Assembly (NCBI GenBank): GCA_963812605.1
Contig: CAWEWF010000006.1
Span: 410,942 to 474,941 of the forward strand
Length of the DNA: 64,000 nucleotides
From: an uncultured Verrucomicrobiae bacterium
GTDB taxonomy: Bacteria; Verrucomicrobiota; Verrucomicrobiia; Palsa-1439
Direction of reading: 5' to 3'
In this document: piece after piece, positions 25,911-63,821 of the stretch
How positions within the stretch are numbered: position 1 is the stretch's first letter
Layout: each line of letters starts with the position of its first letter
Translations under genes and position numbers: made by a program
The notes under the pieces: model-generated
The model's database searches: none
Seen by the model: only the letters and a program-made list of their open reading frames with translations
What the model was told of the DNA's origin: nothing

Positions 25911-25955
25911 GAAATCAGCTCCCCGCTTTGGACGATTTGCGAACCTTTAGAATTC
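25911..25955. repeat. tRNA-end-like att repeat (motif L), outlying copy
   Basis: gaaatcagctccccgctttggacgatttgcgaacct. Confidence 0.85.
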
Positions 25956-25999
25956 AGTTGCCGAGACCGACGACTGGGGCACACCGATATTAGCCTGCA

Positions 26000-26605
26000 T
26001 TATTTCTGTATCTCGTACGCTTCTGAAAAGTCCTGCTTCGATGGCGTCTCTTCGTCGAGACCTGCGCTCAACAACGGGGAAACACTCGGCATCGGGTGGA
26101 CATACCACTTGCCGTTGCTGTCCTTGATCACCATCGTCCGATTGAGCGCATGGTCGCCGTTTTGGAGGAAAACTCCAACATCCACGAACATAATATCCTG
26201 AAAGTCAAATGACGCGTAACCGTACGACGCGGGCCCACTCATGCTGAGATGGCGCGCCGCGAAAACCTTCCCGACGGACTTCGGTCCACCTGGTGAAGGC
26301 TCCTTCTTGGCAGCTTCCGCCCTCATTCCGGCCATCGTGTTCATGAGAAACGTCGCATAATCCGCCGGTCCCCTACCGCCTCCGTAAAGCCTGATGCAAG
26401 TATTGGTGAACAGTGCGACATCACGGTTAATAAATGCTCGTGCCAAATCGCAAGCTGCGCCCTCTGGTGTATCGTGGCCACTCGGATAACCATCGGCGGC
26501 CACTCTCAATTTCGGCTTTGTGGCCGTGTCGGCAGCGACGGAATAGAGAATCATTGTGAAGATACAAAAAAGTGTTGTAAGCGCTTTCATATTGCGTGCG
26601 TGCAT
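26000..26605 (-). CDS. Hypothetical secreted protein (cassette gene)
   Basis: Signal peptide MKALTTLFCIFTMILYSVAA; flanked by motif L and motif R. Confidence 0.75.
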   Translation of the reverse strand: MHARNMKALTTLFCIFTMILYSVAADTATKPKLRVAADGYPSGHDTPEGAACDLARAFINRDVALFTNTCIRLYGGGRGPADYATFLMNTMAGMRAEAAKKEPSPGGPKSVGKVFAARHLSMSGPASYGYASFDFQDIMFVDVGVFLQNGDHALNRTMVIKDSNGKWYVHPMPSVSPLLSAGLDEETPSKQDFSEAYEIQK

Positions 26606-26623
26606 GGTCAGCTATGTGAAGCC

Positions 26624-26664
26624 CATTAGACCTCTGATAGAACCCCTAGGAAAGCACAAAAAAA
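26624..26664 (-). repeat. Promoter-like repeat (motif R), outlying copy
   Basis: cattagacctctgatagaacccctaggaaagcacaaaa. Confidence 0.85.
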
Positions 26665-26696
26665 GACCCTACCACTTAGATATTGTGGGCTGGGCT

Positions 26697-28139
26697 TTAC
26701 AGATACGGTGAAAATAACCGCGCTACGGCGTCGCGTAGTTTTGCGGGTAACGATCGCGCATTCACTTCCGCCAACGTGACCTCGCGCGCGCCGTGAAGTT
26801 TCCGTTGAATCACCGCTTCCATTTCACGGGCGAAATCGTGTCCGTAACATTCGAGGTTCAATTCAAAATTCAACCGCAGGCTGCGCGCGTCCCAATTCGC
26901 CGAGCCGAGCAGGACCCAGTGGCCGTCCACGATCATCAATTTGGAGTGGTCGAAGGGCGGTGGGGTGAGCCAGACACGACAGCCGCGTTTCAGCACCTGC
27001 CACCATAGGGCTCGTGAGGCCCAATGCACGAACGGCAGGTTGTTCTTCGCCGGCAGCAGAATGTCCACCCGCACGTCCCGCATCGCCGCGAGGTTCAGCG
27101 CGGTGATGAGCGCCGTGTCCGGCAAAAAATACGGCGTAACAATCTGCACGGACATTTGCGCCTCAGCCAGCGCCGCCAGCAGCGCCCAGCGGAATTTTTC
27201 GAAATCCTCATCCGGCCCGTCCGTGATGACGCGCGCGATGACTTCCCCGCATTCTTTCAATTCGGGGAACCAGATGTCGCTGTCGAGTGTTTCGCCGGTG
27301 GTGAAGGCCCAATCATTCACAAACGCCTCCTGCAATCGCGTCACCACCGGGCCTTCGACGCGAAATTGCAAATCCTGCACGGCATGTTGCGGGTGTTCGG
27401 CCAGGACGTTGCTGCGGCGGATGTTCATGCCGCCGGTAAAAGCCGTCCGGCCATCCGCAACGAGAAGTTTGCGGTGATTGCGCAGGTTGATTGTTGTCAC
27501 GCGCCAGGGGGTCAACAAAGAAGCCGGCAGGAATTTCGCAAACGGGACCTGCGCGCGTTTCAGTCGGTGGGTGATGGGCGGCCACGAGTAGCGCGTGCCG
27601 GCCGCGTCAATTAACACGCGCACAACCACCCCGCGTTTGACAGCGCGGCCCAGCGCGTCAACAAACTGTTTTCCGCTGGGGTCGTTATCGAAAATGTAGG
27701 TCGTGAACGCAAGGGACTTGGTGGCGGACTCGATCGCGGCAATCATGGCGGGAAACGCCGCGTCGCCGTTGACCAGTGATTGGACGCGGTTGCCAGGCGT
27801 CAGCGGCTGCCCGACGACGTGACTGACAACGCGCGCGAGTTGTTGCAGGTGCTGCGCTTCCACAGCCTCGGTTTCACCCAAATCTTCCGGAATGGGACGG
27901 CTGGTGATTTTATGTATGCCGAGGGAGATGGCGCGTCGGCGAATGCGGTTGATGCCGAACACCAGATACAGCATCGGCCCGAGCACCGGCAGAAACCAGA
28001 TGAGACCGATCCAGAGCGCCGCGGCACGCGAATCGCGCTTGTGTAGCAGGACGTGGATCGCGGCGAGCAGCGCCGCCAGGAAGCCAAAGCCCGCAACCAA
28101 ATGCGGCCAAAACCTCGAAATCGCCTGGGGCCAGTCCAT
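26697..28139 (-). CDS. cls: Cardiolipin synthase (PLD family)
   Basis: Two HKD motifs (RNHRKLLVADG, HSKLMIVDG), N-terminal TMs. Confidence 0.92.
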   Translation of the reverse strand: MDWPQAISRFWPHLVAGFGFLAALLAAIHVLLHKRDSRAAALWIGLIWFLPVLGPMLYLVFGINRIRRRAISLGIHKITSRPIPEDLGETEAVEAQHLQQLARVVSHVVGQPLTPGNRVQSLVNGDAAFPAMIAAIESATKSLAFTTYIFDNDPSGKQFVDALGRAVKRGVVVRVLIDAAGTRYSWPPITHRLKRAQVPFAKFLPASLLTPWRVTTINLRNHRKLLVADGRTAFTGGMNIRRSNVLAEHPQHAVQDLQFRVEGPVVTRLQEAFVNDWAFTTGETLDSDIWFPELKECGEVIARVITDGPDEDFEKFRWALLAALAEAQMSVQIVTPYFLPDTALITALNLAAMRDVRVDILLPAKNNLPFVHWASRALWWQVLKRGCRVWLTPPPFDHSKLMIVDGHWVLLGSANWDARSLRLNFELNLECYGHDFAREMEAVIQRKLHGAREVTLAEVNARSLPAKLRDAVARLFSPYL

Positions 28140-28213
28140 GGATGGAATACTTTTAGTGGAAGCGACTGCCCGACGCGAGGATTTAGAAGACCGGCTGGGT
28201 TGTCCGCCAAAAG

Positions 28214-28278
28214 GAAAGTTGGCTCCCCGCTTTGGACGGTATGCGAACCTTATGTTTTGAACTTCTGAGGGTTTCCGA
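28214..28278. repeat. tRNA-end-like att repeat (motif L), outlying copy
   Basis: gttggctccccgctttggacggtatgcgaaccttatgttttgaacttctgagggtttccg. Confidence 0.85.
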
Positions 28279-35194: not shown

Positions 35195-40951
<5,757 letters not shown>

Positions 40952-42166: not shown

Positions 42167-43021
42167 TCAGGAACCGATTCGTTTGCGCAACCGCCTTTTC
42201 ACATCGGCCTGGAACTCATCGATGAACCCGCATACATACTCAACAATATCGCGCGACTCATCGACTACCAGCGGCGTCAGATCCATGCCAAACGCCACCG
42301 CCGTGGCCTGATCCGTGGCGTGGGACTTGAAGAACGTCGCGTTGGCACGACGACGACCGAGCACGGCAAGGTCGTAACGCTTGCCACCCGCAATTTGCGA
42401 AGCAAACACGCTGTTGATCGCCGCGGCGAGGTCCTCGTGACCGCTGACATCCATCAGCACCTTGCGCTCATCGGCCAACCAATCGAGATCACGCCAGACT
42501 TCGCAGCCCCAAACTTTCCGTGGACGTCGTTCCGTCGGTAATTCGCGCATTGCCTGGAGCGCGGCGATAACGACGCCGATGTGTGTATCGTGTTTGTCGG
42601 CGGGATTATGGGTGTAGAGAATCTGCGGATGCATTGCGGCGAGCAATTGCTTCAAGTCGTCCTGCAACGCGGTATCGGCCGAATTCCTGACGGCAGTGCT
42701 GGAGTAACCGAGTTGCGCCATCAATCCGTAGCGTCCAATCGTTGCGGCGGCTTTCTGTTCCTGGCGACGGACAGCCTGCATTTGTTCGTCGGTGTGGTTG
42801 GCGTACACGCCGAGGCGCGCGCTCCCGCCGCCATCCGTACAGGTGATCCCCCCGAACCCTTTGTTGTCAGCCTGATAACATTCCACAATCCCGTGGAAGG
42901 CCATGAACTCCAGGTCATCCTGATGCGCGCCGATCCCCAAATGCGTGATACGACGGAGCGCTGCCTCAACAGGCTGGCCGTCCGGCACAAAGATCTCCGC
43001 GGACTCGTTGCGCAGTTTCAC
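42167..43021 (-). CDS. PIG-L family deacetylase
   Basis: GAHQDDLE, THNPADKHDTH; GTG start inferred, in-frame ATG also at 43144. Confidence 0.85.
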   Translation of the reverse strand: MKLRNESAEIFVPDGQPVEAALRRITHLGIGAHQDDLEFMAFHGIVECYQADNKGFGGITCTDGGGSARLGVYANHTDEQMQAVRRQEQKAAATIGRYGLMAQLGYSSTAVRNSADTALQDDLKQLLAAMHPQILYTHNPADKHDTHIGVVIAALQAMRELPTERRPRKVWGCEVWRDLDWLADERKVLMDVSGHEDLAAAINSVFASQIAGGKRYDLAVLGRRRANATFFKSHATDQATAVAFGMDLTPLVVDESRDIVEYVCGFIDEFQADVKRRLRKRIGS

Positions 43022-43183
43022 GATCTTCTCCTCAACGCCGGCAGACCGGCGAGCGGCCTGGCCGACCAATAGTCCGCCATACACGCCCGCCACCAAGTTG
43101 GTGAGTGCGATCAGAAAAGTTTCTCTTTTGGTCAAGACGCGCATCGGGCTGTTTTCTCCACAACGGTCGGAGGTGCAAATTTG

Positions 43184-43220
43184 ATTAAACCTCTGATGGA
43201 ACCACGAGGAAAGCTCAAAA
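43184..43220 (-). repeat. Promoter-like repeat (motif R)
   Basis: attaaacctctgatggaaccacgaggaaagctcaaaa. Confidence 0.85.
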
Positions 43221-43290: not shown

Positions 43291-43350
43291 TTGAAATTGG
43301 CTCCCCGCTTTGGACGGTTTGCGAACCTTGCGGTTCGAACTTTCAAAGGC
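43291..43350. repeat. tRNA-end-like att repeat (motif L)
   Basis: ttgaaattggctccccgctttggacggtttgcgaaccttgcggttcgaac. Confidence 0.9.
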
Positions 43351-43359
43351 TGCCACGGT

Positions 43360-43446
43360 GGCTGTCGTAGACCCTCAGACCGCGCAGGCCCCAGAGCATC
43401 CAAGCGGAGTGCGCGGGCGGCGGCTGCCTGCAGGGTCTTGTTAGCC
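43360..43446 (-). mobile_element. Degenerate integron attC-like site
   Basis: Minus strand GGCTAAC-AAGAC-CCTGCAGG...TCTGAGG-GTCTAC-GACAGCC, immediately 3' of a cassette gene. Confidence 0.6.
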
Positions 43447-43464
43447 GTTGTGGCCTGTGATTTC

Positions 43465-43947
43465 TCATTTCGCTCTCTCCAAAATCATAGCCTCCCCGCC
43501 GTCTGGATCGCCCAACGTGAAAATCAATCCATAAGGCGGCTTCTGTCCAGTCAGGCCGACTGGCTTAATCTTTGCACTCGGAGAATCCAAGTACACTCCC
43601 CAGTGTGTCTTGAGCGACCCGTTGCCGTTGTCAATCGAACCAACACTGTCAATGCGCCAAGTGCCCGAGGCTGTCAAAAGCGAACTGAAAAAGTTCGTGC
43701 CAGTCGAACCAAGCTCCCACGGCGGAACGTTCGTGGCGGTGAATGTGCCATCTGCTTGCAGATAAATGAGGCAAGGCTTGCCCTGAAACGCCGCCAATCC
43801 ACCTTGTGTAACTGTCTGACTTGCCAGCATGTAGAGACCGGCAACATCTGCAGTCTGCGGCTTCTCGGTTGTGTAGAGGTGTGCGTATGGGTCATACTGA
43901 CAACCCTGCGCCAACAACAAGATCGTAAGAAATGAGAGAACGCGCAT
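43465..43947 (-). CDS. Hypothetical lipoprotein (cassette gene)
   Basis: MRVLSFLTILLLAQGC lipobox-like start at 43947. Confidence 0.75.
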   Translation of the reverse strand: MRVLSFLTILLLAQGCQYDPYAHLYTTEKPQTADVAGLYMLASQTVTQGGLAAFQGKPCLIYLQADGTFTATNVPPWELGSTGTNFFSSLLTASGTWRIDSVGSIDNGNGSLKTHWGVYLDSPSAKIKPVGLTGQKPPYGLIFTLGDPDGGEAMILERAK

Positions 43948-43956
43948 AGAAATGCT

Positions 43957-44035
43957 ATTAGACCTTTGATAGAACTGTGAGGAAAGACCAAAATACGTCC
44001 CCGCTTTGGACGGTTTGCGAACCTTGCGGTTTGAA
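43957..44035. repeat. Cassette junction: motif R + motif L
   Basis: attagacctttgatagaactgtgaggaaagaccaaaa-tacgtccccgctttggacggtttgcgaaccttgcggtttgaa. Confidence 0.9.
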
Positions 44036-44146
44036 ATGGTCAGCGTCTGATTATCTCGGACTGCGGTGCCAGCCACGCGCGCGTTCGTGGCCGTGCCGAT
44101 GTCGAGATAGTTGCCCCTGGTTCGCTCCAGTGATTTTGTTAGGCAC

Positions 44147-44596
44147 CTAATTGACATCACCAAGATAGATCGTGTGAAAGTCGCCCAGACCTTTCTGAAA
44201 AAGCTTCGGGTAGACCCGAACACTACCCAAGCTTTCGAGGGGCACCCATTCCACATCAACCTGATTGGTATCCCTCATTTCTCCGTTCCTGGGTTCTGGT
44301 CCGGACACCAGACCACACTCGAAGTACAATTCCACCTGATGAACATCACCGTCAGACTCCGGAAATTCATGGTTCCTTCCGATGTACTCGCGCACAAGAC
44401 GCAGCGGCCCGACAGAAATCGATATGCCTGTCTCTTCGAAGCATTCCCGGCGTAGCGCGGCAAGCATGTCCTCGCCGGGATTTTGCCCACCTCCAGGGAA
44501 AACGTACCAGAAGCCATCTTGATCAATGTTCTTGATGAGGAGCACATGACGGTCACGGATTATGATCGCTTTGATAGAGTTGCGAATTGGCTTCAT
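44147..44596 (-). CDS. NUDIX hydrolase (cassette gene)
   Basis: PGGGQNPGE....ALRRECFEETG Nudix box. Confidence 0.9.
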   Translation of the reverse strand: MKPIRNSIKAIIIRDRHVLLIKNIDQDGFWYVFPGGGQNPGEDMLAALRRECFEETGISISVGPLRLVREYIGRNHEFPESDGDVHQVELYFECGLVSGPEPRNGEMRDTNQVDVEWVPLESLGSVRVYPKLFQKGLGDFHTIYLGDVN

Positions 44597-44623
44597 ATCT
44601 TCCTTCCAGATCGGCGCGTTCCC

Positions 44624-44720
44624 ATTAAATCTCTGATGGAACCACTAGGAAAGCACAAACGGGGCTCTCCGCTTCTGGCGCTTTGCGAACCTGGCCGGTT
44701 TGAGGTACTGAGGGCTTCCG
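44624..44720. repeat. Cassette junction: motif R + motif L
   Basis: attaaatctctgatggaaccactaggaaagcacaaac-ggggctctccgcttctggcgctttgcgaacctggccggtttga. Confidence 0.88.
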
Positions 44721-44754: not shown

Positions 44755-45243
44755 TTAGAAAATTCCCGATTTCGCATACTCGCGGAACTTCTGCCGTTGT
44801 TCGGGGGTAAACGAACTCTTTGGAATGACCGATGCAAGACCGGTTTTGGAAAGGTGGAGATAAAAGTAATCGGCATCTTCCGAGAACCCGTGAAATCTCG
44901 TCCACGGCATTTCGCTTCTCCAGTCCGGTCCGACAACTACCAGGCGCGACTGGCCGAACTCGACTGTCTTCGGATCAGTTAACTGAGAGTTACCATCGAC
45001 CACCCTGCCGAGGCCCCGGTAAAGAAAGATTGGGAGTAAGACACATAGCACGAAAAGAAAAATACCGATAGACTGACTGCCGCGATCAAACGCGAGGAGG
45101 AACATGCCGCAGACGAGCAACGCCGCCATGCTTGCGAGACGACGGGGGCGAAACATCATGCGCCTCCACAAAATCCGGACAAGAACATCGCGTGGCATTT
45201 TGTAGCTAATGGATGAACTCTCAAGAAGTGGAGGAGGTTCCAT
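44755..45243 (-). CDS. YcxB-like membrane protein (cassette gene)
   Basis: Two TMs then SEMPW..F....ED..YFYL....VIPK.SF; ATG at 45243. Confidence 0.75.
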   Translation of the reverse strand: MEPPPLLESSSISYKMPRDVLVRILWRRMMFRPRRLASMAALLVCGMFLLAFDRGSQSIGIFLFVLCVLLPIFLYRGLGRVVDGNSQLTDPKTVEFGQSRLVVVGPDWRSEMPWTRFHGFSEDADYFYLHLSKTGLASVIPKSSFTPEQRQKFREYAKSGIF

Positions 45244-45253
45244 TGCTTGGCTG

Positions 45254-45350
45254 ATTAAACCTCCGATCAACCCCGGAAGAAAGCACAAAAAAGGAGTCCC
45301 CGCATTGGGCGATTTGCCAACCCGGCGGTTTGAACTTCCGAGGGTCACCG
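45254..45350. repeat. Cassette junction: motif R + motif L
   Basis: attaaacctccgatcaaccccggaagaaagcacaaaaaa-ggagtccccgcattgggcgatttgccaacccggcggtttgaacttccgaggg. Confidence 0.85.
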
Positions 45351-45378: not shown

Positions 45379-45815
45379 TCCGCCTTCGCTAAAGCTACGG
45401 AGGACAAGCCTGCTCGGTTATCGTTAATCGATAATTGTTCTGGACACGGTGTTTCCGGGTAGGTATAGTCGGGGAGTAAACAAGTGAACACTCAATGTTC
45501 AACTCTCCGTCGCGAGTATGGAAATACCCCTCACCCTAACCCTCTCCCCCAAGGGGAGAGGCAAGCGGAATGGCAAGGCTTCCGCCGTCGCTCTTCGAGC
45601 TATGGCGGACAGGTCGGCGCGACTTGCGGGGGGGCCCCTATACGTTTCTGCGAAACGAACCCACCGTTTTTTGACGGAATTTATATTGTAAATGCCTATG
45701 AATGCATGCGTTATGCAAGAAATGCGCGAGGTGAATCGGTGGGTTCGTTTTGGAAAACGAACCCACCGGGGAGGGTTTTTGGGGTCGTTTCCGGTGAAAA
45801 GTGGGTTCGTTTTAG
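45379..45815. repeat. Cluster of short palindromic/REP-like and aacgaacccac elements
   Basis: ccgccttcgctaaagctacggagg; ccctcaccctaaccctctcc..ggagagg; ccgccgtcgc..gctatggcgg; several aaacgaacccac / gtgggttcgtttt. Confidence 0.65.
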
Positions 45816-45935
45816 GAAAGCGAAGCCGGTTGCCCCAGACGACAACGGCATTTGGCTCGGCTCCGTCCGACTCGGCTTGCGGCGCAACGAGTTTGAAATT
45901 GGCTCCGCGCGTTGGACGGTTTGCGAACCTGGCGG
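45797..45935. repeat. ~110-bp direct repeat copy ending in a hybrid tRNA-end/motif L junction
   Basis: Similar to 46921-47030; ...ttgaaattggctccgcgcgttggacggtttgcgaacct. Confidence 0.88.
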
Positions 45936-46068
45936 CTATAGATCGTGCGTGGGCTTTGAGGTCGCTCAGTGGTCGATCTCTGCAACGGGCAAGAAATCTG
46001 CTCAAATTCCTATTGTTCCAAGCCGAGCGAAAGGATATGGAATACGTAGGTTGTTTCAGGCTGCGTCA

Positions 46069-46920: not shown

Positions 46921-47030
46921 AAAAGTGGGTCGTTTCAGGAAAACGAAACTCGTTGCCGCGGACGACAGCGGCACCTGGCTCGGCTTCGTTCGACTCGGCT
47001 TGCGGCACAACGAGGTTGAAATTGGCTCCG
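46921..47030. repeat. ~110-bp direct repeat copy abutting the tRNA-Asn 3' end
   Basis: aaaagtgggtcgtttcaggaaa...cgactcggcttgcggcacaacgaggttgaaattggctccg. Confidence 0.88.
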
Positions 47031-47097
47031 CAGGTAGGACTCGAACCTACAACCCGCGCATTAACAGTGCGCTGCTCCACCATTGAGCTACTGCGGA
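47023..47097 (-). tRNA. tRNA-Asn(GTT)
   Basis: Cloverleaf TCCGCAG...GCGCA-CTGTTAA-TGCGC...GTAGG-TTCGAGT-CCTAC-CTGCGGA-G-CCA. Confidence 0.97.
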
Positions 47098-52784: not shown

Positions 52785-53051
52785 GGCCGTGCACCTCGCT
52801 TCGACAAGCGACATCGGTTCGCGCGCCGCGGTTGAAGCTCCAGCCAGGCGCCCCGACGGCACATGGAACATCAAGCTTACCGTTGCTGTCTTCCGACCCT
52901 GGCGGGGTTCGCAAGCAACCATTGCATCGGACCCGGCCTTCGACGCCGCCCCGCAGTCTGCTCGCCCACATCACCGCCTCGGCGAGGAATTCGGCCCAGC
53001 TATAGCGGGTTGCTGGTGCAGGGAACCGCTAACTCCCCGCCTAGCACGACC
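52785..53051 (-). ncRNA. ffs: Signal recognition particle RNA, large (Alu-domain) type
   Basis: Domain IV GCCAGGGUCGGAAGACAGCAAC; 5' GGUCGUGCUAGGCGGGGAGUUAGCGGUUCCCUG pairing with 3' GCACGGCC; upstream of dnaX. Confidence 0.88.
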
Positions 53052-53191
53052 AAAAATCTACCCGCGAAACCATTTCGCGGTTGCGCCCTGTACTTAGCCC
53101 GAACGACAGCCTAAAACAAGAGCAAATTGCCGTGGCGGTTCTGTCGATTCAGTGCTCATTTTTAGCGATTTGCTTGCGCGCGGGCGCAACG

Positions 53192-53216: not shown

Positions 53217-53292
<76 letters not shown>

Positions 53293-54338: not shown

Positions 54339-56120
54339 ATGAAGACGAATAATCAAGACGTGGACGTGGCCACCAACGAGATACAGGTTGACCAGGCCCA
54401 AACACAAGTTGAGCAGGCCGAGGCCCGGACCCAGCAGGCGGAAGCGCGGACCGGGCAGGCTGAGGCGCGAACCGGGCAGGCCGAGACACGAACGGAGCAA
54501 GCCGAGACGCGGACGGAGCAGGCTGAGTCACGAACCAAGCAGGCGGAGGCGCGGACCGGTCAGGCCGAGACGCGGACGGAGCAAGCCGAGGCACGAACCG
54601 AGCAGGCTGAAGCGCGGAGTGAGCAGGCGATCCGCGCCTCTGAACTCCGGTACCGGCGGCTGTTCGAAACGATGCAGGACGGCATCCTCATTCTCGATGC
54701 CGACACCGGGCAGGTGGTGGACGCCAACCCGTTCATGAAAGATTTGCTTGGTTATTCGCAGGAAGAATTTCTCGGAAAGAAACTGTGGGAAATCGGTCCC
54801 TTCAAAGGCGAGGCGGCTTCCAAAATCGCTTTCGCGGAATTACAACACCAAGACCGTCTTCGCTACGAAGGCCTCCCCCTGGAGACGAAGGACGGACGGC
54901 GGGTCGAGGTCGAGTTCATCAGCAACGCCTATCTCGCGGACCAGAAGCGGCTGATCCAATGCAACATCCGCGACATCACGGAGCGCAAACGAGCGGAAAT
55001 AGACTCAATCCGGCTGGCGGCAATTATCGAATCCTCGGACGACGCCATCATCGGCAAAGACCTGAATAGCATCATCACCAGTTGGAACGCCGGCGCCGAG
55101 AAGGTTTTTGGGTATTCCGCGGCAGAGATGGTGGGCAGCCCGATTATGCGGCTGATTCCAGCCGATCGGCAGGAAGAGGAAAGCCAAATAGTGGGAAAGA
55201 TCCGGCGCGGTGAAAAGGTGCGGCATTTTGAAACCGTCCGGCAGGCAAAGGATGGCCGGATGATTGACGTTTCCGTCACTGTTTCACCCATTAAGGATTC
55301 GACGGGTAAGGTCGTCGGTGCGTCGAAAGTGGCGCGGGACATCACCGAGCGGAAGCAGGCGGAGGAAAAAATCCGCAGTCTCAACGCGGAACTGGAGCAG
55401 CGCGTCGCTGAACGCACAGCACAATTAGAGGCGGCGAACAAGGAACTGGAGGCGTTCAGCTATTCCGTCTCCCATGACCTGCGCGCGCCGTTGCGCCATG
55501 TGGCGGGATTTGTGGAACTACTGAAGGCCGATGCTGCGCCCGTCCTTTCGGAGAAGAGCCGCAAACACCTGGGCACGATTTCCGAATCCGCAAAACGGAT
55601 GGGGGATTTGATTGATGACCTGCTGGCGTTTTCGCGGATCGGGCGATCGGAAATGCAGAAGTCAACCGTCAATCTCGACGACCTCGTCAAAGAGACACTG
55701 GCCGGGTTGCAAGCGGAGACGAAGGAACGAAACATTACCTGGAAAATAGACCCGTTGCCCGAAGTGCAGGCGGACCGTTCGATGTTGCGGCAAGTGTTGG
55801 TCAATCTCCTGTCCAATGCGGTGAAATTCACCCGCCCGCGCAACCCGGCCACCATCGACGTCGGTTGCGCCGCGGCGGACAACAAGGAAATCACCATCTT
55901 TGTCCGCGACAACGGCGCCGGGTTCGATCCGAAATACGTTGGCAAACTTTTCGGCGTATTTCAGCGCTTGCACAGCAGCAATGACTTCGAAGGCACGGGC
56001 ATCGGGCTGGCCAACGTCCAGCGCATCATCCAGCGCCACGGCGGCCGGGTCTGGGCGGAAGGCGCCGTGGACCAGGGCGCGACGTTTTATTTTTCAATCC
56101 CCAAATCCAAGGAGGCGTAA
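54339..56120 (+). CDS. PAS-PAS histidine kinase with N-terminal heptad repeats
   Basis: TxQAE(A/T)R repeats, two PAS-PAC, SVSHDLRAPL, GTGIGL. Confidence 0.93.
   Translation: MKTNNQDVDVATNEIQVDQAQTQVEQAEARTQQAEARTGQAEARTGQAETRTEQAETRTEQAESRTKQAEARTGQAETRTEQAEARTEQAEARSEQAIRASELRYRRLFETMQDGILILDADTGQVVDANPFMKDLLGYSQEEFLGKKLWEIGPFKGEAASKIAFAELQHQDRLRYEGLPLETKDGRRVEVEFISNAYLADQKRLIQCNIRDITERKRAEIDSIRLAAIIESSDDAIIGKDLNSIITSWNAGAEKVFGYSAAEMVGSPIMRLIPADRQEEESQIVGKIRRGEKVRHFETVRQAKDGRMIDVSVTVSPIKDSTGKVVGASKVARDITERKQAEEKIRSLNAELEQRVAERTAQLEAANKELEAFSYSVSHDLRAPLRHVAGFVELLKADAAPVLSEKSRKHLGTISESAKRMGDLIDDLLAFSRIGRSEMQKSTVNLDDLVKETLAGLQAETKERNITWKIDPLPEVQADRSMLRQVLVNLLSNAVKFTRPRNPATIDVGCAAADNKEITIFVRDNGAGFDPKYVGKLFGVFQRLHSSNDFEGTGIGLANVQRIIQRHGGRVWAEGAVDQGATFYFSIPKSKEA
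54408..54638 (+). repeat. 21-bp tandem repeats (about 11 heptads)
   Basis: VEQAEAR TQQAEAR TGQAEAR TGQAETR TEQAETR... Confidence 0.9.
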
Positions 56121-56630: not shown

Positions 56631-58202
56631 ATGAAATCACCCCTGCGCATCCTGCATCTGGAAGACGACGAAAACGACGCCGACCTTGTCTTGTCAACGC
56701 TCGCGGCCGAAGGGATTCCCTGCCAGGCGAAGCGCGTCCAAACCCGCGCTGATTTCACCGCCGCGATTGAGCACGGCGGCTTTGACATCATTTTCTCAGA
56801 CTTTGCCCTGCCTGCCTTTGATGGAATAGCCGCGCTGGAAATGACGCAGAAGCAATGTCCCGATGTGCCTTTCATCCTCATCTCGGGCACGCTGGGCGAG
56901 GAATTGGCAATTCAATCACTCAAGAGCGGCGCCACGGATTACGTCCTCAAGCAACGCCTTTCCCGCCTCGCGCCCGCCGTGCGCCGTGCGATGCAGGATG
57001 TCGAGGCCGTTGCCGAGCGCAAACGGTTGGAAGCCCAGTTCATCGAAGCCCAGAAGATGGAAGTGATTGGCCAGCTTGCCGGCGGGGTGGCACACGATTT
57101 TAACAACCTGCTGGCCGTCATCATGGGTTACAGCGAACTGATGATGGTCAAACTTCCCCCGAACGAACCCATGCGAAAAGAAGCCGAGGAGATCGGGCAT
57201 GCCGCCGACCGCGCCGCGGGTCTGACCCGGCAACTCCTGGCATTCAGTCGCAAGCAGAAAGTGCAGCCTGTCGTCCTCGATCTCAACGAGGTTGTCGCCG
57301 GCATGGAGAAAATGTTGCGACGCCTGATCGACGAGAACGTCGAACTGCAACTCGTACCGGGAAAAGAGATCGGTCGCGTCAAGGCCGACTGCGGTTACGT
57401 CGAACAAGTCTTGATGAACCTCGTCGTCAACGCCCGTGATGCCATGCATAACGGCGGAAAGCTCACCCTCGAGACGAGCAACGTCGCCCTGGACAAGACT
57501 TATGGACACACGCATGACGGCGTGACTCCGGGAAGTTATGTGATGCTGTCGGTCAGCGACACGGGTAGCGGCATGACCGATGAGGTGCAAGCACACCTCT
57601 TTGAAGCATTCTTCACGACCAAGCCGAAGGGCAAAGGCACCGGCCTGGGCCTGGCGACCTGCCAGACCATCATTAAACAATGCGGCGGCCATATCAACGT
57701 CTTCAGCAAGCTGGGCAAAGGCACGACTTTCAAGATTTATTTCCCACGCGTCGAACAGGCTCTGGAGTCATCGGCTCACCCACACGCCAAGGGAGGAGCA
57801 ATGCCGCGTGGCACGGAAACGATTCTGTTCGTGGAGGACGAACCGGCCGTGCGTCAGTTGGCTTGCAGCGTCCTGGAATCTCTCGACTACAAAGTCCTGC
57901 GGGCGAACAACGGCCAGGAGGGATTGGATTTGGCTCTCAAGCGGAAAGGAGGGCCGATTCAGTTGGTCGTCACGGATGTCATTATGCCCCAGATGGGCGG
58001 CAAAGTGATGGCCGAATGGCTGAAAGCCACCTACCCCGATTTGAAAATTCTTTACACATCCGGGTACACCGACGACGCACTGTCCGAACACGGCGTGCTG
58101 GAGCCCGGCATCGCCTTTCTGCCAAAACCCTACGCGCCGGCGGCACTCGCCGGTAAAGTACGTGAACTGCTGGATACGCCGCGAACCAAAGTGCGGCCGT
58201 GA
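56631..58202 (+). CDS. Hybrid receiver-histidine kinase-receiver
   Basis: LHLEDD, GVAHDFNN, GTGLGL, C-terminal REC. Confidence 0.93.
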   Translation: MKSPLRILHLEDDENDADLVLSTLAAEGIPCQAKRVQTRADFTAAIEHGGFDIIFSDFALPAFDGIAALEMTQKQCPDVPFILISGTLGEELAIQSLKSGATDYVLKQRLSRLAPAVRRAMQDVEAVAERKRLEAQFIEAQKMEVIGQLAGGVAHDFNNLLAVIMGYSELMMVKLPPNEPMRKEAEEIGHAADRAAGLTRQLLAFSRKQKVQPVVLDLNEVVAGMEKMLRRLIDENVELQLVPGKEIGRVKADCGYVEQVLMNLVVNARDAMHNGGKLTLETSNVALDKTYGHTHDGVTPGSYVMLSVSDTGSGMTDEVQAHLFEAFFTTKPKGKGTGLGLATCQTIIKQCGGHINVFSKLGKGTTFKIYFPRVEQALESSAHPHAKGGAMPRGTETILFVEDEPAVRQLACSVLESLDYKVLRANNGQEGLDLALKRKGGPIQLVVTDVIMPQMGGKVMAEWLKATYPDLKILYTSGYTDDALSEHGVLEPGIAFLPKPYAPAALAGKVRELLDTPRTKVRP

Positions 58203-60441
58203 ATAAACTTCGGCAACTGCCGCTGGGCGCACAGGTGTTGCTCACCTTCGGAACGCTCTGTGCCATCCTCCTGATCATCGGCGGGTTGTTTTTTTTAGCC
58301 TGCGAGCCATCGAGCGCGGTAATCAAGTGCAGCAATCGCGCGCGCTGAATAAACTGGCTGTAATTGATGACGCGGCGCAGGACGTTGAGCAGATGCAAGC
58401 CGAAGTCCTTCGGGAGATCCTGGCGACTGACCTGGAGGAGATCAAGCGTCTTGATCAAACCGTTCGCGATACAGAAAGAATCAACGCCAAGGAACTCGTC
58501 GCTTATCAAAGGTTCGTTGATACGGCAAAGGAAAAACAGCTTTACGATAGCGTCCTCCAGGCGCGAAAAGCGTATTGGGAGCAGACGGAAACGGTCCTGA
58601 CGTTCGGCCACGCCAATCGGGATGCCGAAGCGATGGAATCCATCAACGCGAAGCAGGCTCCCGTCTACGATGAATACCTCAAAACAATCAACGAATTGAT
58701 CCAATACGTGGAAACCAGCACGCAAGATACCACCGAAGCCGTGTCTCGTTTCATTTCCCAAATTAGAATCATTGGCGATGCTCTCGCTGGCATTGCCATA
58801 CTCATTGCCATCGGCACCGGTTTCGCCGTGGTGGGAGTCGCCCGCCGACTCGAGGAGGACAACCGCCTTTTGCAGGTCGAAGTCACCGAGCGAAAAGAAG
58901 CGGAAGAAACCTTGCGCGAAAACGAGGAAAAATTTCGCCAGTTGGCGGAGAACATTGCCGACGTTTTCTGGGTGACTTCGCCCGACCTGCAAAAGATTCA
59001 CTACGTCAGCCCCGCTTACGAACAGATTTGGGGTCGTTCGGTGCAAAGCTCCTATACCAACCCGCAGGAGTGGGCCGAAGCGATCTTTCCGGAAGAACGT
59101 GAGCGTGTGTTTGCTACATTCCTCAAGCTGGCGCAGGAACCCAGCGTGAGCACCGAGTTTCATATCACGCGCCCCGACGGCACGGTCCGCTGGATCTTCA
59201 GCCGCGGTTTCCAAGTCCGCGATGCCGCGGGCAAGGTGATTCGCATCACCGGCGTGGCCAGCGACATCACCGAGCGCAAACAGCTCGAAGCCCAGTTATT
59301 TCAATCCCAGAAAATGGAAACGGTCGGCAAACTGGCCGGCGGGATCGCGCATGAGTTTAACAGCATCCTGACCGCGATCATCGGCCGCAGTGAATTGCTG
59401 CTCAGCGATCTTCCCTCCGGCAGTCCGCATTGCGCCAACGCGATCGCCATCCGCAAAGCCGCCGATCTGGCCGCCTCGCTGACGCACCAGCTTTTGGCGT
59501 ACGGTCGCAAGCAAATTCTGCGGTCGGACTCCCTCAATCTCAACCAGATCCTGTCGGGTATGGAAGGCATGTTGCGTCATTTGATGGGCAGCGATGTGGA
59601 CGTGCGCATCGTTCCCGCGGTGGGCCTGCCCGCGGTGAAAGCGGACGCTGGCCAAATTGAGCAGGTTATCATGAACATCGCCATCAACGCCCGTGAAGCG
59701 ATGCGTCATGGCGGCAAGCTCACGCTGGAAACCTCCCCAACCACTCTCGACGAGGAATATGTCCACCGGTTTCCCGAAGTGAAGCCGGGAGATTATGTCA
59801 TGCTCGCCATCTCCGATACCGGCGCCGGCATGAACGAGAAAGTGAAAGCGCATCTCTTCGAGCCGTTTTTCACGACCAAGGGCGTCGGCGAAGGCACGGG
59901 ATTGGGACTGGCCACGTGCCACGGCATCATCAAACAAAGCGGCGGCCACATCAATGTGTACAGCGAACTCGGACGGGGCACCACGTTCAAGGTTTACCTT
60001 CCCCAGGTCGAACAGCGAATGGAAGTTCCCGCTGTAAAGCCGGCGTCGAGGGATCTGCCGACGGGAACCGAAACAATCCTGCTCGTCGAGGATGATCCCT
60101 CGTTGCGTGAGATGGCCAGCCTGTTGTTGCGGCGGTTGGGCTACGCCGTGCTGGCGGCTGCCAATGGGCCCGAAGCCTTGAACCTGACCCACCAACGAGA
60201 CGCGGGGAATATTGACTTGTTGTTCACGGACATCGTCATGCCGCAAATGGACGGCAAAGAATTGTCCGACCGCATTCGCGCCCTGCGTCCGCAAACGAAA
60301 ACGCTCTTTACTTCCGCCTACACGGAAAACGCCGCCATCCACCAAGGAGTGCTGAGTGAGGGTGTCGCGCTCCTGCAAAAGCCCTTCACACCTTCCGCGC
60401 TCGCGCAGAAATTGCGCGCCGTTCTCGATGGTCGTTCCTAA
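58199..60441 (+). CDS. Membrane hybrid histidine kinase (helical sensor, PAS, REC), frameshift in T8 run near 58290
   Basis: GTG start coupled to upstream stop gives the first TM (VLLTFGTLCAILLIIGGLFF), continuing into ORF 58327..60441; GIAHEFN. Confidence 0.88.
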
Positions 60442-62598: not shown

Positions 62599-63821
62599 GC
62601 GGTTTGCCAGTTACCGTGTCGGCGCTCGCGGCGGATCACCACCAGGAGCAGTGCCACCCACACCATCAGGGTTGCCCAGCAAGGAGCGCCTACCACCTCC
62701 AGTTGGTGGATGCAAGCGGAAGCCAAAACGACCACGCCAAAAAGCATCAGTGTCCAACAGGTGATTCGCCGCGTCGTATCATCCGGCTCCTCCAGTGCCA
62801 CTGTCATCAACGTTATCAGCGGCAGGAGCAACAGGATGAAATAATGCGTCTCCGAGACCGGCGGCAGCAGCAGCATCCAGGTCACGACGGCGGAACCGAT
62901 CAGCAACTCGGAATCCCGCCCCGTGTTCCGTCCCACCATCCACATGGCTCCGATCATCGCCAGTCCAACGAACACGGTCGTCCCCCGGGCTAACAAGTCG
63001 TTGTTCGTCAAGCGGCTGAGCACGGCAAGCAGAGATTGGTTGCGCGGTCGGTACGGGTTGAGCAATTGATCGTTTAATACGCTCCGCGTCCGTTGAGCTT
63101 CCGCCGCGAGCGCCGGTCGGGCGATGGCTTGCCCCCAACTCTCCCAGTATGCGAGGCTCCTTTTGAAACCGAAAACAGCACCGGGAAGAATCAGACCGAC
63201 AGCAATAACGGTCGCCAGCGTGGCCAGCAGGAACTTCCATTTCCTTCTCCAGGCAAAATATCCAAGCAAGACCAACGGGAAGGCTTTCAACAGAATGGCG
63301 CCGGCCAGGCAGGCGCCGCCCCGCAAGTCGTGACCTTCCCAATGCCAGCAGAAGGCTGCCAGCACCAGCCACATCATCAACACCGAGGCCTGACCGCGTT
63401 CGAGCCCCGACGCGAACCACACCAACAGCAAGACGATGGGTACGACGAACCGAATCAAAAGATGGTTTTCGCCAGGCAAGGCCGATCGCACCGTCCTCAG
63501 GCACAGCAGCAGTGTCCAGATAATCAAAGCCACCGAGATCAGGTACCAGACCAACGCCCCCCAAAACACCGACAGCAGGGCGAAGGGCGCCATGAAAATT
63601 GCAAAGGGCGGCGGGTACACGTACGCCCATCCCCGGACGTTGTGCACTTGATAAATGTCGGTCCCGTCAAGGACCGCCCGGCCAGCCAGTTGGTAAACAG
63701 TGAAATCCGACCTTTGGATTGGTAAAATCGCCGCACGATACACGGTACTGATGCCGAGCCAGATGACGAAAGCCAACGCTATCGTCAGGCAAGCTGCCGT
63801 TCGCCTATTGACCAGCGGCAA
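62595..63821 (-). CDS. GT87 (DUF2029) glycosyltransferase
   Basis: DFTVY, YVYPP.FA, GQ, LKAFP, NQSL, HY. Confidence 0.85.
   Translation of the reverse strand: MPLVNRRTAACLTIALAFVIWLGISTVYRAAILPIQRSDFTVYQLAGRAVLDGTDIYQVHNVRGWAYVYPPPFAIFMAPFALLSVFWGALVWYLISVALIIWTLLLCLRTVRSALPGENHLLIRFVVPIVLLLVWFASGLERGQASVLMMWLVLAAFCWHWEGHDLRGGACLAGAILLKAFPLVLLGYFAWRRKWKFLLATLATVIAVGLILPGAVFGFKRSLAYWESWGQAIARPALAAEAQRTRSVLNDQLLNPYRPRNQSLLAVLSRLTNNDLLARGTTVFVGLAMIGAMWMVGRNTGRDSELLIGSAVVTWMLLLPPVSETHYFILLLLPLITLMTVALEEPDDTTRRITCWTLMLFGVVVLASACIHQLEVVGAPCWATLMVWVALLLVVIRRERRHGNWQTA

Follow-up and report, generated by a model that had tools for sequence, protein, structure and literature searches.

Behind small genes of this Verrucomicrobiae genome lie sequences that are best explained as decayed attC sites of former integron cassettes, the genes now being split from one another by a junction made of two repeats, D6 and D8; we put the probability of this reading at roughly 75%. 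The window, by which we mean the whole 64-kb stretch of DNA that was analysed, is C6:410942-474941 of a source genome of 4.17 Mb that is 90% complete. An integron-cassette origin is supported for three of its genes, which encode a lipoprotein-like protein, a NUDIX hydrolase and a 201-aa protein, with a strength that differs by gene; this bears out the earlier note on this DNA, which had claimed that the cargo began as integron cassettes. All three would once have been mobile. The attC of the lipoprotein gene would have stayed full-length with mutated boxes, that of the NUDIX gene would have lost its right half, and the genes would now be carried by Verrucomicrobia of soil and peat, in a genus where the integron integrase, IntI, was not found.

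The run of small genes lies on the minus strand and is headed by an intact tRNA-Asn(GTT) (47023..47097, minus strand). It contains a YcxB-like gene (44755..45243, 162 aa, PF14317), the NUDIX gene (44147..44596, 149 aa, PF00293, E=5e-17), the lipoprotein-like gene (43465..43947, 160 aa, no Pfam family) and, after it, a PIG-L deacetylase gene (42167-43144). The 201-aa gene, whose family is unknown, occupies a separate part of the window (26000..26605, minus strand). The YcxB-like member bears no attC trace, and its protein has no homologue in the 300 other genomes of the phylum sample. Genes in the run are separated by D6, often followed by D8 (TTTGTGCTTTCC...GGTTTAAT), a promoter-like box that ends a few bases ahead of the next start codon. 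The D6 copy that follows the lipoprotein gene (43294..43342, minus strand, core GGTTCGCAAAYCGTCCAAAGCGGGGA) starts about 17 nt past the attC relic; further copies in the window are at 43990-44038, 44658-44706, 45289-45337, 45896-45944, 25912-25960 and 28216-28264. D8 is found at 43954..43992 (minus strand), immediately upstream of the lipoprotein start, and at 43181-43219, 44621-44659, 45251-45289 and 26622-26660. At Rfam gathering scores the window yields SRP RNA and two tRNAs only. A search of sequencing runs for the array listed no RNA run and three soil-metagenome DNA runs from one study (0.15-0.21 of words), whose short contigs showed no differences; they cover the array in parts, bridge no informative junction and possibly stem from the source sample itself.

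To judge the tails of these genes, real attC sites were taken from IntI loci identified with TIGR02249, the integron integrase profile; the fetched loci hold arrays of 60-135-nt sites with ends GCCTAAC...GTTAGGC. A covariance model, R1, was trained on 30 attCs from three arrays of one integron family, and it generalises, with attCs beside IntI in other families, that of the window included, scoring 19-52 bits. A broader model, R2, was trained on 32 R1 matches outside the R1 training set, none of them from the window; two of these lie elsewhere in the same genome and seven on contigs with lipoprotein homologues, and the E-values of R2 are approximate. With R2, real attCs score 19-65 bits (with R1, 19-52 bits outside its own family), and true attCs read on the reverse strand score 13-15 bits (R2). 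A model-free test was also made, in which each tail was globally aligned to 14 real attCs and compared with 400 random genome segments of equal length; this test is not trivially positive, because two other cassette tails were not significant in it. Scanning for R''/R' boxes, strict or relaxed, was not retained as evidence, its rate of matches being that of chance: with up to 2 mismatches allowed, pairs that are at least as good number 1017 in the 64-kb window against 1172-1258 in shuffles, and strict boxes match 86 times across the 4.17-Mb genome.

Two other matches in the window may be recorded here. The top R1 match, 53109-53173(+) (14.8 bits, E=0.14), is a hairpin between SRP RNA (52787-53049) and tRNA-Thr (53217-53292) and is probably a terminator rather than an attC. 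R2 matches occur on both strands at 62963-63045 (13.6 and 10.5 bits, beginning GGCTAACAAGTCG); they lie inside a 408-aa minus-strand ORF and were therefore taken as chance.

The clearest relic is an 87-bp element (43360..43446) that begins 18 nt past the lipoprotein stop codon (43465-43467) and lies on the same strand as the gene. From 43446 to 43360 the minus strand reads GGCTAAC-AAGAC-CCTGCAGG ... TCTGAGG-GTCTAC-GACAGCC; this string and the two others that the earlier note had quoted were all found in the sequence. The attC layout that had been claimed for the element is present, but its box geometry alone does not go beyond chance. Its R'', GGCTAAC, has one mismatch to RYYYAAC, and its R', decayed to GACAGCC, has three to GTTRRRY, with the GTT lost, placing the site outside those that keep the conserved AAC/GTT. 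R1, whose training set is wholly independent of attCs linked to lipoprotein genes, recovered the exact ends of the element on the minus strand (8.8 bits, E=4.3, rank 8 of 12 in the window), a score that is at noise level because a 10.2-bit R1 match sits inside the lipoprotein ORF. With R2 the same coordinates and strand were the first of 31 matches in the window (16.9 bits, E=0.047), and the reverse strand of the element was absent from these matches. An attC-model search was the check that had been proposed for the claim, and it thus returned a signal on the exact site, though a weak one, so that the outcome named beforehand as refuting the claim did not arise. A score of 16.9 bits is lower than that of every real attC scored (19-65 bits) and lies below the level of functional sites; being the best in the window and yet sub-functional, the element was therefore classed as a relic rather than a working site.

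In the model-free test the 87-nt element aligned to real attCs with z=5.9, none of the 400 random segments doing as well; its reverse complement gave z=3.5, again with 0/400. The best single alignment was to a sister-genus attC that lies next to IntI (L054), which reads ...TCTACGTTAGGC where the window reads ...TCTACGACAGCC, and in which the replacement of GTT by GAC at R', as had been proposed, can be seen directly. The minimum free energy fold of the 87 nt (-21.6 kcal/mol) pairs GGCT with AGCC and AGACCCT with AGGGTCT; compared with shuffles it has z=-1.03, and 26 of 200 shuffled sequences fold as well. We consider it likely that the relic attC behind the lipoprotein gene is real.

The relatives of the lipoprotein gene point the same way. 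No homologue was found in 46 other genomes of the order; relatives are encoded on 12 metagenome contigs, at 52-78% identity. Five of the 12 contigs hold attCs on the strand of the gene (20-65 bits with R2), the matches on L123 and L128 lying outside the R2 training set. On L123, L126 and L130 the stop of the homologue is followed within 15 nt by the start of an attC, and on L126, L128 and L130 an attC ends at most 6 nt from the start of the homologue. The L130 site starts GGCTAAC...TGCAGCGAACC, to be compared with GGCTAAC...TGCAGGCAGCC in the window. The other seven contigs gave no covariance-model match; on L122, GTTAGAC can be seen by eye 4 nt before the ATG, also without a model match. Homologues of the lipoprotein gene do occur, on these five contigs, as attC-bounded cassettes in arrays.

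The tail of the NUDIX gene (44039..44144, minus strand like the gene) begins 2 nt past the stop codon and reads GCCTAAC-AAAATC-ACTGGAGC-GAACC from 44144. Its left half, R''-L'' (44144-44117), is clear, with the R'' GCCTAAC fitting RYYYAAC; R' is absent, and no L'-R' right half was found between the left half and the D6 repeat. The left half agrees with an attC of L046 at 24 of 26 positions with one gap, for one extra base, in keeping with the claim that only a left half is left here. In alignment to the 14 real attCs the tail gave z=4.9, with 0/400 random segments as good, and R2 gave it 7.6 bits (E=6). The extra base caused an ungapped weight matrix of the left half to miss the site, and a gapped left-half nhmmer profile placed it at rank 11 genome-wide (E=24); a right-half profile run across the genome found nothing convincing. 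Orthologues on L061 and L062 (89-90% aa identity) have the opening ~35 nt of the tail in common, with GCCTGAC where the window has GCCTAAC, and diverge after that; from this common stretch it follows that the half site travels with the NUDIX gene. No attC was found by R1 or R2 near the orthologues on L061-L063, and models and box scan found no NUDIX relatives inside an attC array. On balance, the NUDIX tail is probably an attC relic. On a MAG contig (L063:3830-3880), a truncated NUDIX copy has D8 before it, and this D8 is preceded by a tRNA-like 3' fragment within a cut ComM/YifB-like gene.

The third gene differs in that its evidence comes from a relative. The heptamer GGCTAAT to which the earlier note had drawn attention is indeed present on the minus strand (25995-25989, feature 25989..25995), 4 nt past the stop of the 201-aa gene, but no attC signal goes with it: the tail aligned to real attCs with z=1.3, 36 of 400 random segments were as good, and R2 found no match there at E<=10. 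For comparison, the tail of the YcxB-like gene in the same test gave z=-1.4, with 367/400 as good. Homologues of the 201-aa protein occur in two of the 300 other genomes of the phylum sample (L132, L133), with no attC near them by R1 or R2. In G004, a genome of the same genus, the homologue has an intact attC at its stop (L135:712-781, 39.6 bits, E=5e-7), a site outside the model training set. The motif itself is no evidence, and its gene is a cassette elsewhere. The expectation that homologues of these genes would be found in integron arrays was thus borne out for the lipoprotein (5/12 contigs) and for the 201-aa protein (G004), and not for NUDIX.

A genome search for intI had also been proposed, and none was found: the best TIGR02249 match in the source genome, at 92 bits, falls short of the cut-off of 265. 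With the genome only 90% complete, this absence is not proven. IntI was found in none of the 18 genomes of the genus (TIGR02249, E<=1e-40). In the same family, 16 of 27 genomes from sister genera have it (15 of them above the curated cut-off), spread over 10 of 14 genera, and 86 of the 301 genomes of the phylum sample score above the curated cut-off. With no IntI found in the genus, its attC sites would be unmaintained and decaying; we infer, from the distributions of IntI and attC, that IntI was lost and that attC decay followed. Intact attCs are nevertheless present in the source genome, at C8:95801-95860 (40.8 bits with R1) and at C6:351217-351312 (34.1 bits with the independent R1; R2, in whose training it was used, gives 53.7 bits). 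Three D6 copies lie in the run of small genes that holds the latter site, near which there are lower-scoring matches at C6:350664 (14.2 bits) and C6:352690 (13.1 bits). In G006, an array at tRNA-Asn has an attC (R1 23 bits, E=0.0017) 27 nt before a D6 copy.

The junction itself is a feature of the genus. The source genome has 22 D6 copies, and the 26-nt D6 core (<=3 mismatches) was found in 16 of 17 other genus genomes, at as many as 36 copies; two sister genera have it once or twice, and it was seen in none of 16 genomes of other families. At 7 of 14 loci D6 lies behind tRNA-Asn and on its strand, and no cargo family is common to the window and those tRNA-Asn loci. Aligned with tRNA-Asn, the D6 core matches a stretch that opens at GGTTCG in the T-loop, reaches GCGGAGCCA and extends into the flank ATTTC. 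Two continuations are seen right of ...GCGGGGA, either GCCAATTTCC, as after the tRNA, or CTCC and D8; the arm left of G|GTTCGC is variable, with 3 of 34 copies reading ...CTGAAnTCTAAAG|GTT and the rest CCTCRG..CAAG|GTT. Furthermore, ahead of three D8 copies there is an end that is more tRNA-like, GGTTCGAGTCCTGCCTGCGGA. D6 is conserved in sequence and not in fold (z about 0). A cardiolipin synthase block (26692-28197), kept in three relatives in other contexts, ends at D8/D6 borders, D6 flanking this gene too. Neither D6 nor D8 was seen beside IntI in 30 fetched integron loci.

A further repeat is found where the array begins. It is a 114-nt direct repeat (family D10; 46927-47040 and 45804-45917, 84% identity) made of the final 18 nt of tRNA-Asn and 96 nt of flank, which brackets ~1 kb with a plus-strand 284-aa ORF that has no Pfam family; the distal copy (45804-45917) has a D6-type core and not one of the tRNA type. 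The same flank also follows a D6 copy on C10 and tRNA-Asn in G004. A tRNA-targeting element would be expected to have an integrase next to the tRNA and direct repeats of the tRNA 3' end at both ends; 3'-end repeats are present, and no integrase was found in the window array. No recombinase gene was found beside any D6 array. A large serine recombinase (541 aa, L013:11678-13303, G009) ends at the 3' end of tRNA-Asn, as it also does in G007 and G015, and pieces left of its 3' end are found after a D6 copy in the source genome (C2:44780) and after tRNA-Asn in G008. As a candidate for the D6 enzyme it adjoins tRNA-Asn in only 3-4 genomes, and the source genome has a 30%-identical relative of it on C3. 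In relatives, tRNA-Asn loci (L014, L015, L010, L013 and L023) hold tandem paralogous TPR-repeat genes of 600-800 aa, several with a D6 copy within 8-12 nt of the stop. D6 was also considered by eye as a dif-like Xer site, a sigma-54/ECF promoter, a tRNA minihelix and a REP-like palindrome, and these were dropped, there being no matching arm symmetry or spacing.

The preferred reading of the junction is that D6 would be the shared core of an attachment site for a trans-acting recombinase, which would stack single-gene units behind tRNA-Asn and at other D6 copies, with D8 driving each gene. The earlier note had held that the cargo was re-captured by a tRNA-targeted system which supplies its own promoter. 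Fitting observations were obtained for this still hypothetical mechanism; no recombinase, excision product or transcription start was found, and D8 was not called as a sigma-70 promoter in a promoter/terminator scan. The facts of the junction fit a recombination core, none of them demonstrating recombination, and recapture by a second, tRNA-Asn-linked mechanism using D6 and D8 is plausible. In its fullest form, the proposal would be that a genus which appears to have lost IntI swapped attC for a core derived from tRNA-Asn (D6, T-loop to acceptor end), a trans-acting recombinase stacking promoter-bearing single-gene units, behind tRNA-Asn and at D6 copies elsewhere, into arrays like those of integrons, with cargo taken partly from the integron cassette pool and attCs decaying in place; this would be a second cassette-array system, of independent origin and supplied from the first. 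This we offer tentatively, as a scheme that may well prove wrong.

Alternatively, there may be no second capture system. These would then be old integron arrays (CALINs) that remained after the loss of intI, and D6 and D8 would be repeats that spread later, for example a terminator-plus-promoter module or a small mobile repeat, with shuffling by homologous recombination between the repeats. We regard this as possible though hardly probable. It accounts for the presence of an intact attC, attC relics and D6 copies in one array and for attC followed by D6 in two genomes, and it would leave room for D8-led genes that end in attC-like sites without D6, as at C4:36529 (22.1 bits) and C13:62151 (21.7 bits, both R2). 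Several loci have D6 only 8-12 nt past a stop codon, the large TPR genes among them, like a 3'-end element; D6 could equally be a 3'-end signal there, and the promoter/terminator scan showed a weak stem and T-run at one D6/D8 joint. The lack of a nearby recombinase is also as expected of repeats. What such repeats explain poorly is that D6 is conserved as sequence and not as fold, that its core matches the 3' end and flank of tRNA-Asn, that arrays recur at tRNA-Asn with different cargo, that homology blocks stop at D6/D8 borders and that D6 is not beside IntI in the fetched sister-genus integron loci. A CALIN is defined as two or more attC sites within 4 kb and no integrase; clustering of that type within the window amounts to one weak match and one half site.

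D6 could also be a product or substrate of integron-type recombination, IntI having inserted cassettes at the G|TT of a tRNA-Asn-like T-loop (an attG-type site), in which case the left arm of D6 would be the right half of an attC and its right arm the 3' part of the tRNA. Part of bioRxiv 10.1101/2022.09.11.507474 describes the insertion of cassettes by IntI at 5'-GWT-3' genome sites; the constant D6 core begins at GTT, the arms of the 3/34 copies ending ...CTGAAnTCTAAAG|GTT are like attC L'-spacer ends, and the intact G004 attC ends in GTTCGCT. This explanation is nonetheless unlikely, as D6 is conserved in a genus where IntI was not found, no covariance-model match was obtained over the three copies with such arms (class B), the TPR-gene loci have no room for an attC left half, and the head tRNA-Asn is intact.

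Finally, chance resemblance, with the tails being ordinary GC-rich 3' hairpins or terminators bearing attC-like heptamers, would suit the box geometry, the R1 E-value of 4.3, the fold z of -1.03 and the non-significant GGCTAAT tail, but it is very unlikely given the R2 top match on the exact coordinates, the z values of 5.9 and 4.9 against a null of real genome segments, the homologues that are attC-bounded cassettes, and the absence of a T-run after the hairpins, where no terminator was called.

In comparison with known systems, passages of PMC4889954 describe attC sites without integrase (CALINs) and their possible origins, place about half of CALINs in genomes lacking intI, as in the source genome where no integrase was found, and name Verrucomicrobia among the integron-bearing phyla; part of bioRxiv 10.1101/2022.09.11.507474 deals with SALINs (single attCs) and with the 5'-GWT-3' sites (attG). 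Since integrase-less attC sites (CALIN, SALIN) are already known, the relics themselves are ordinary. Like these sites, they lie directly behind a small strain-specific gene and on its strand; the 87-nt element has the R''-spacer-L'' ... L'-spacer-R' layout, and its sequence is similar to attCs of integrons in the same family and class. They differ in that the lipoprotein site has lost its GTT (GAC), has one mismatch in R'' and scores below real sites, in that the NUDIX site is without a right half, and in that the next gene is reached through D6 and D8 and not through R'.

Tandem genomic islets at the 3' end of tRNA genes are integrase-mediated and share a block of identity that spans T-loop to acceptor end. 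Like them, the window array starts at tRNA-Asn, its junction core resembles the tRNA (GGTTCG through GCGGAGCCA, with the flank ATTTC), and cargo varies between species at the same tRNA. In contrast to islets, its units are single genes of 0.6-0.7 kb with no integrase beside the arrays, the D6 core is not a working tRNA end (it is 5 nt longer and diverged), and D6 copies are at many non-tRNA places. The attG case is similar in that attC cassettes lie outside an integron platform and need a resident promoter, and the D6 core begins GTT; it differs in that no IntI was found here and the junction is a long conserved repeat rather than a 3-nt site, and any link would be hypothetical. A shallow literature search on integron attC/attG found no title on a tRNA-derived junction in such arrays.

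It is the setting that is unusual: sister genera carry IntI, and a genus where it was not found has tens of copies of a tRNA-derived junction per genome, D6 punctuating hypervariable single-gene arrays in which former integron cassettes sit. Should the junction prove a working recombination site, a change of carrier could let cassette genes survive the disappearance of an integron, and this would be a natural case for how cassette-array systems arise. If it is a repeat only, the locus still documents the path of attC decay after integrase loss.

Several features away from the array were also noted. A 1918-aa ORF at 35195-40951(+) contains nine tandem copies of a 276-nt (92-aa) unit with 64-78% identity (repeats 35692-38201), and at 54372-54644 a coding region contains a 21-nt (7-aa) unit, rich in CAGGC/GAG codons, that is repeated ten times in tandem. 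The stretches 57013-57758 and 59270-60015 are paralogous, 2257 nt apart and 70-73% identical (families D5, D9 and D11), and look like duplicated sensor-kinase genes. Outside the window, 19 tRNA genes, a second tRNA-Asn included, lie within about 7 kb of the source genome (C14:750058-756692).
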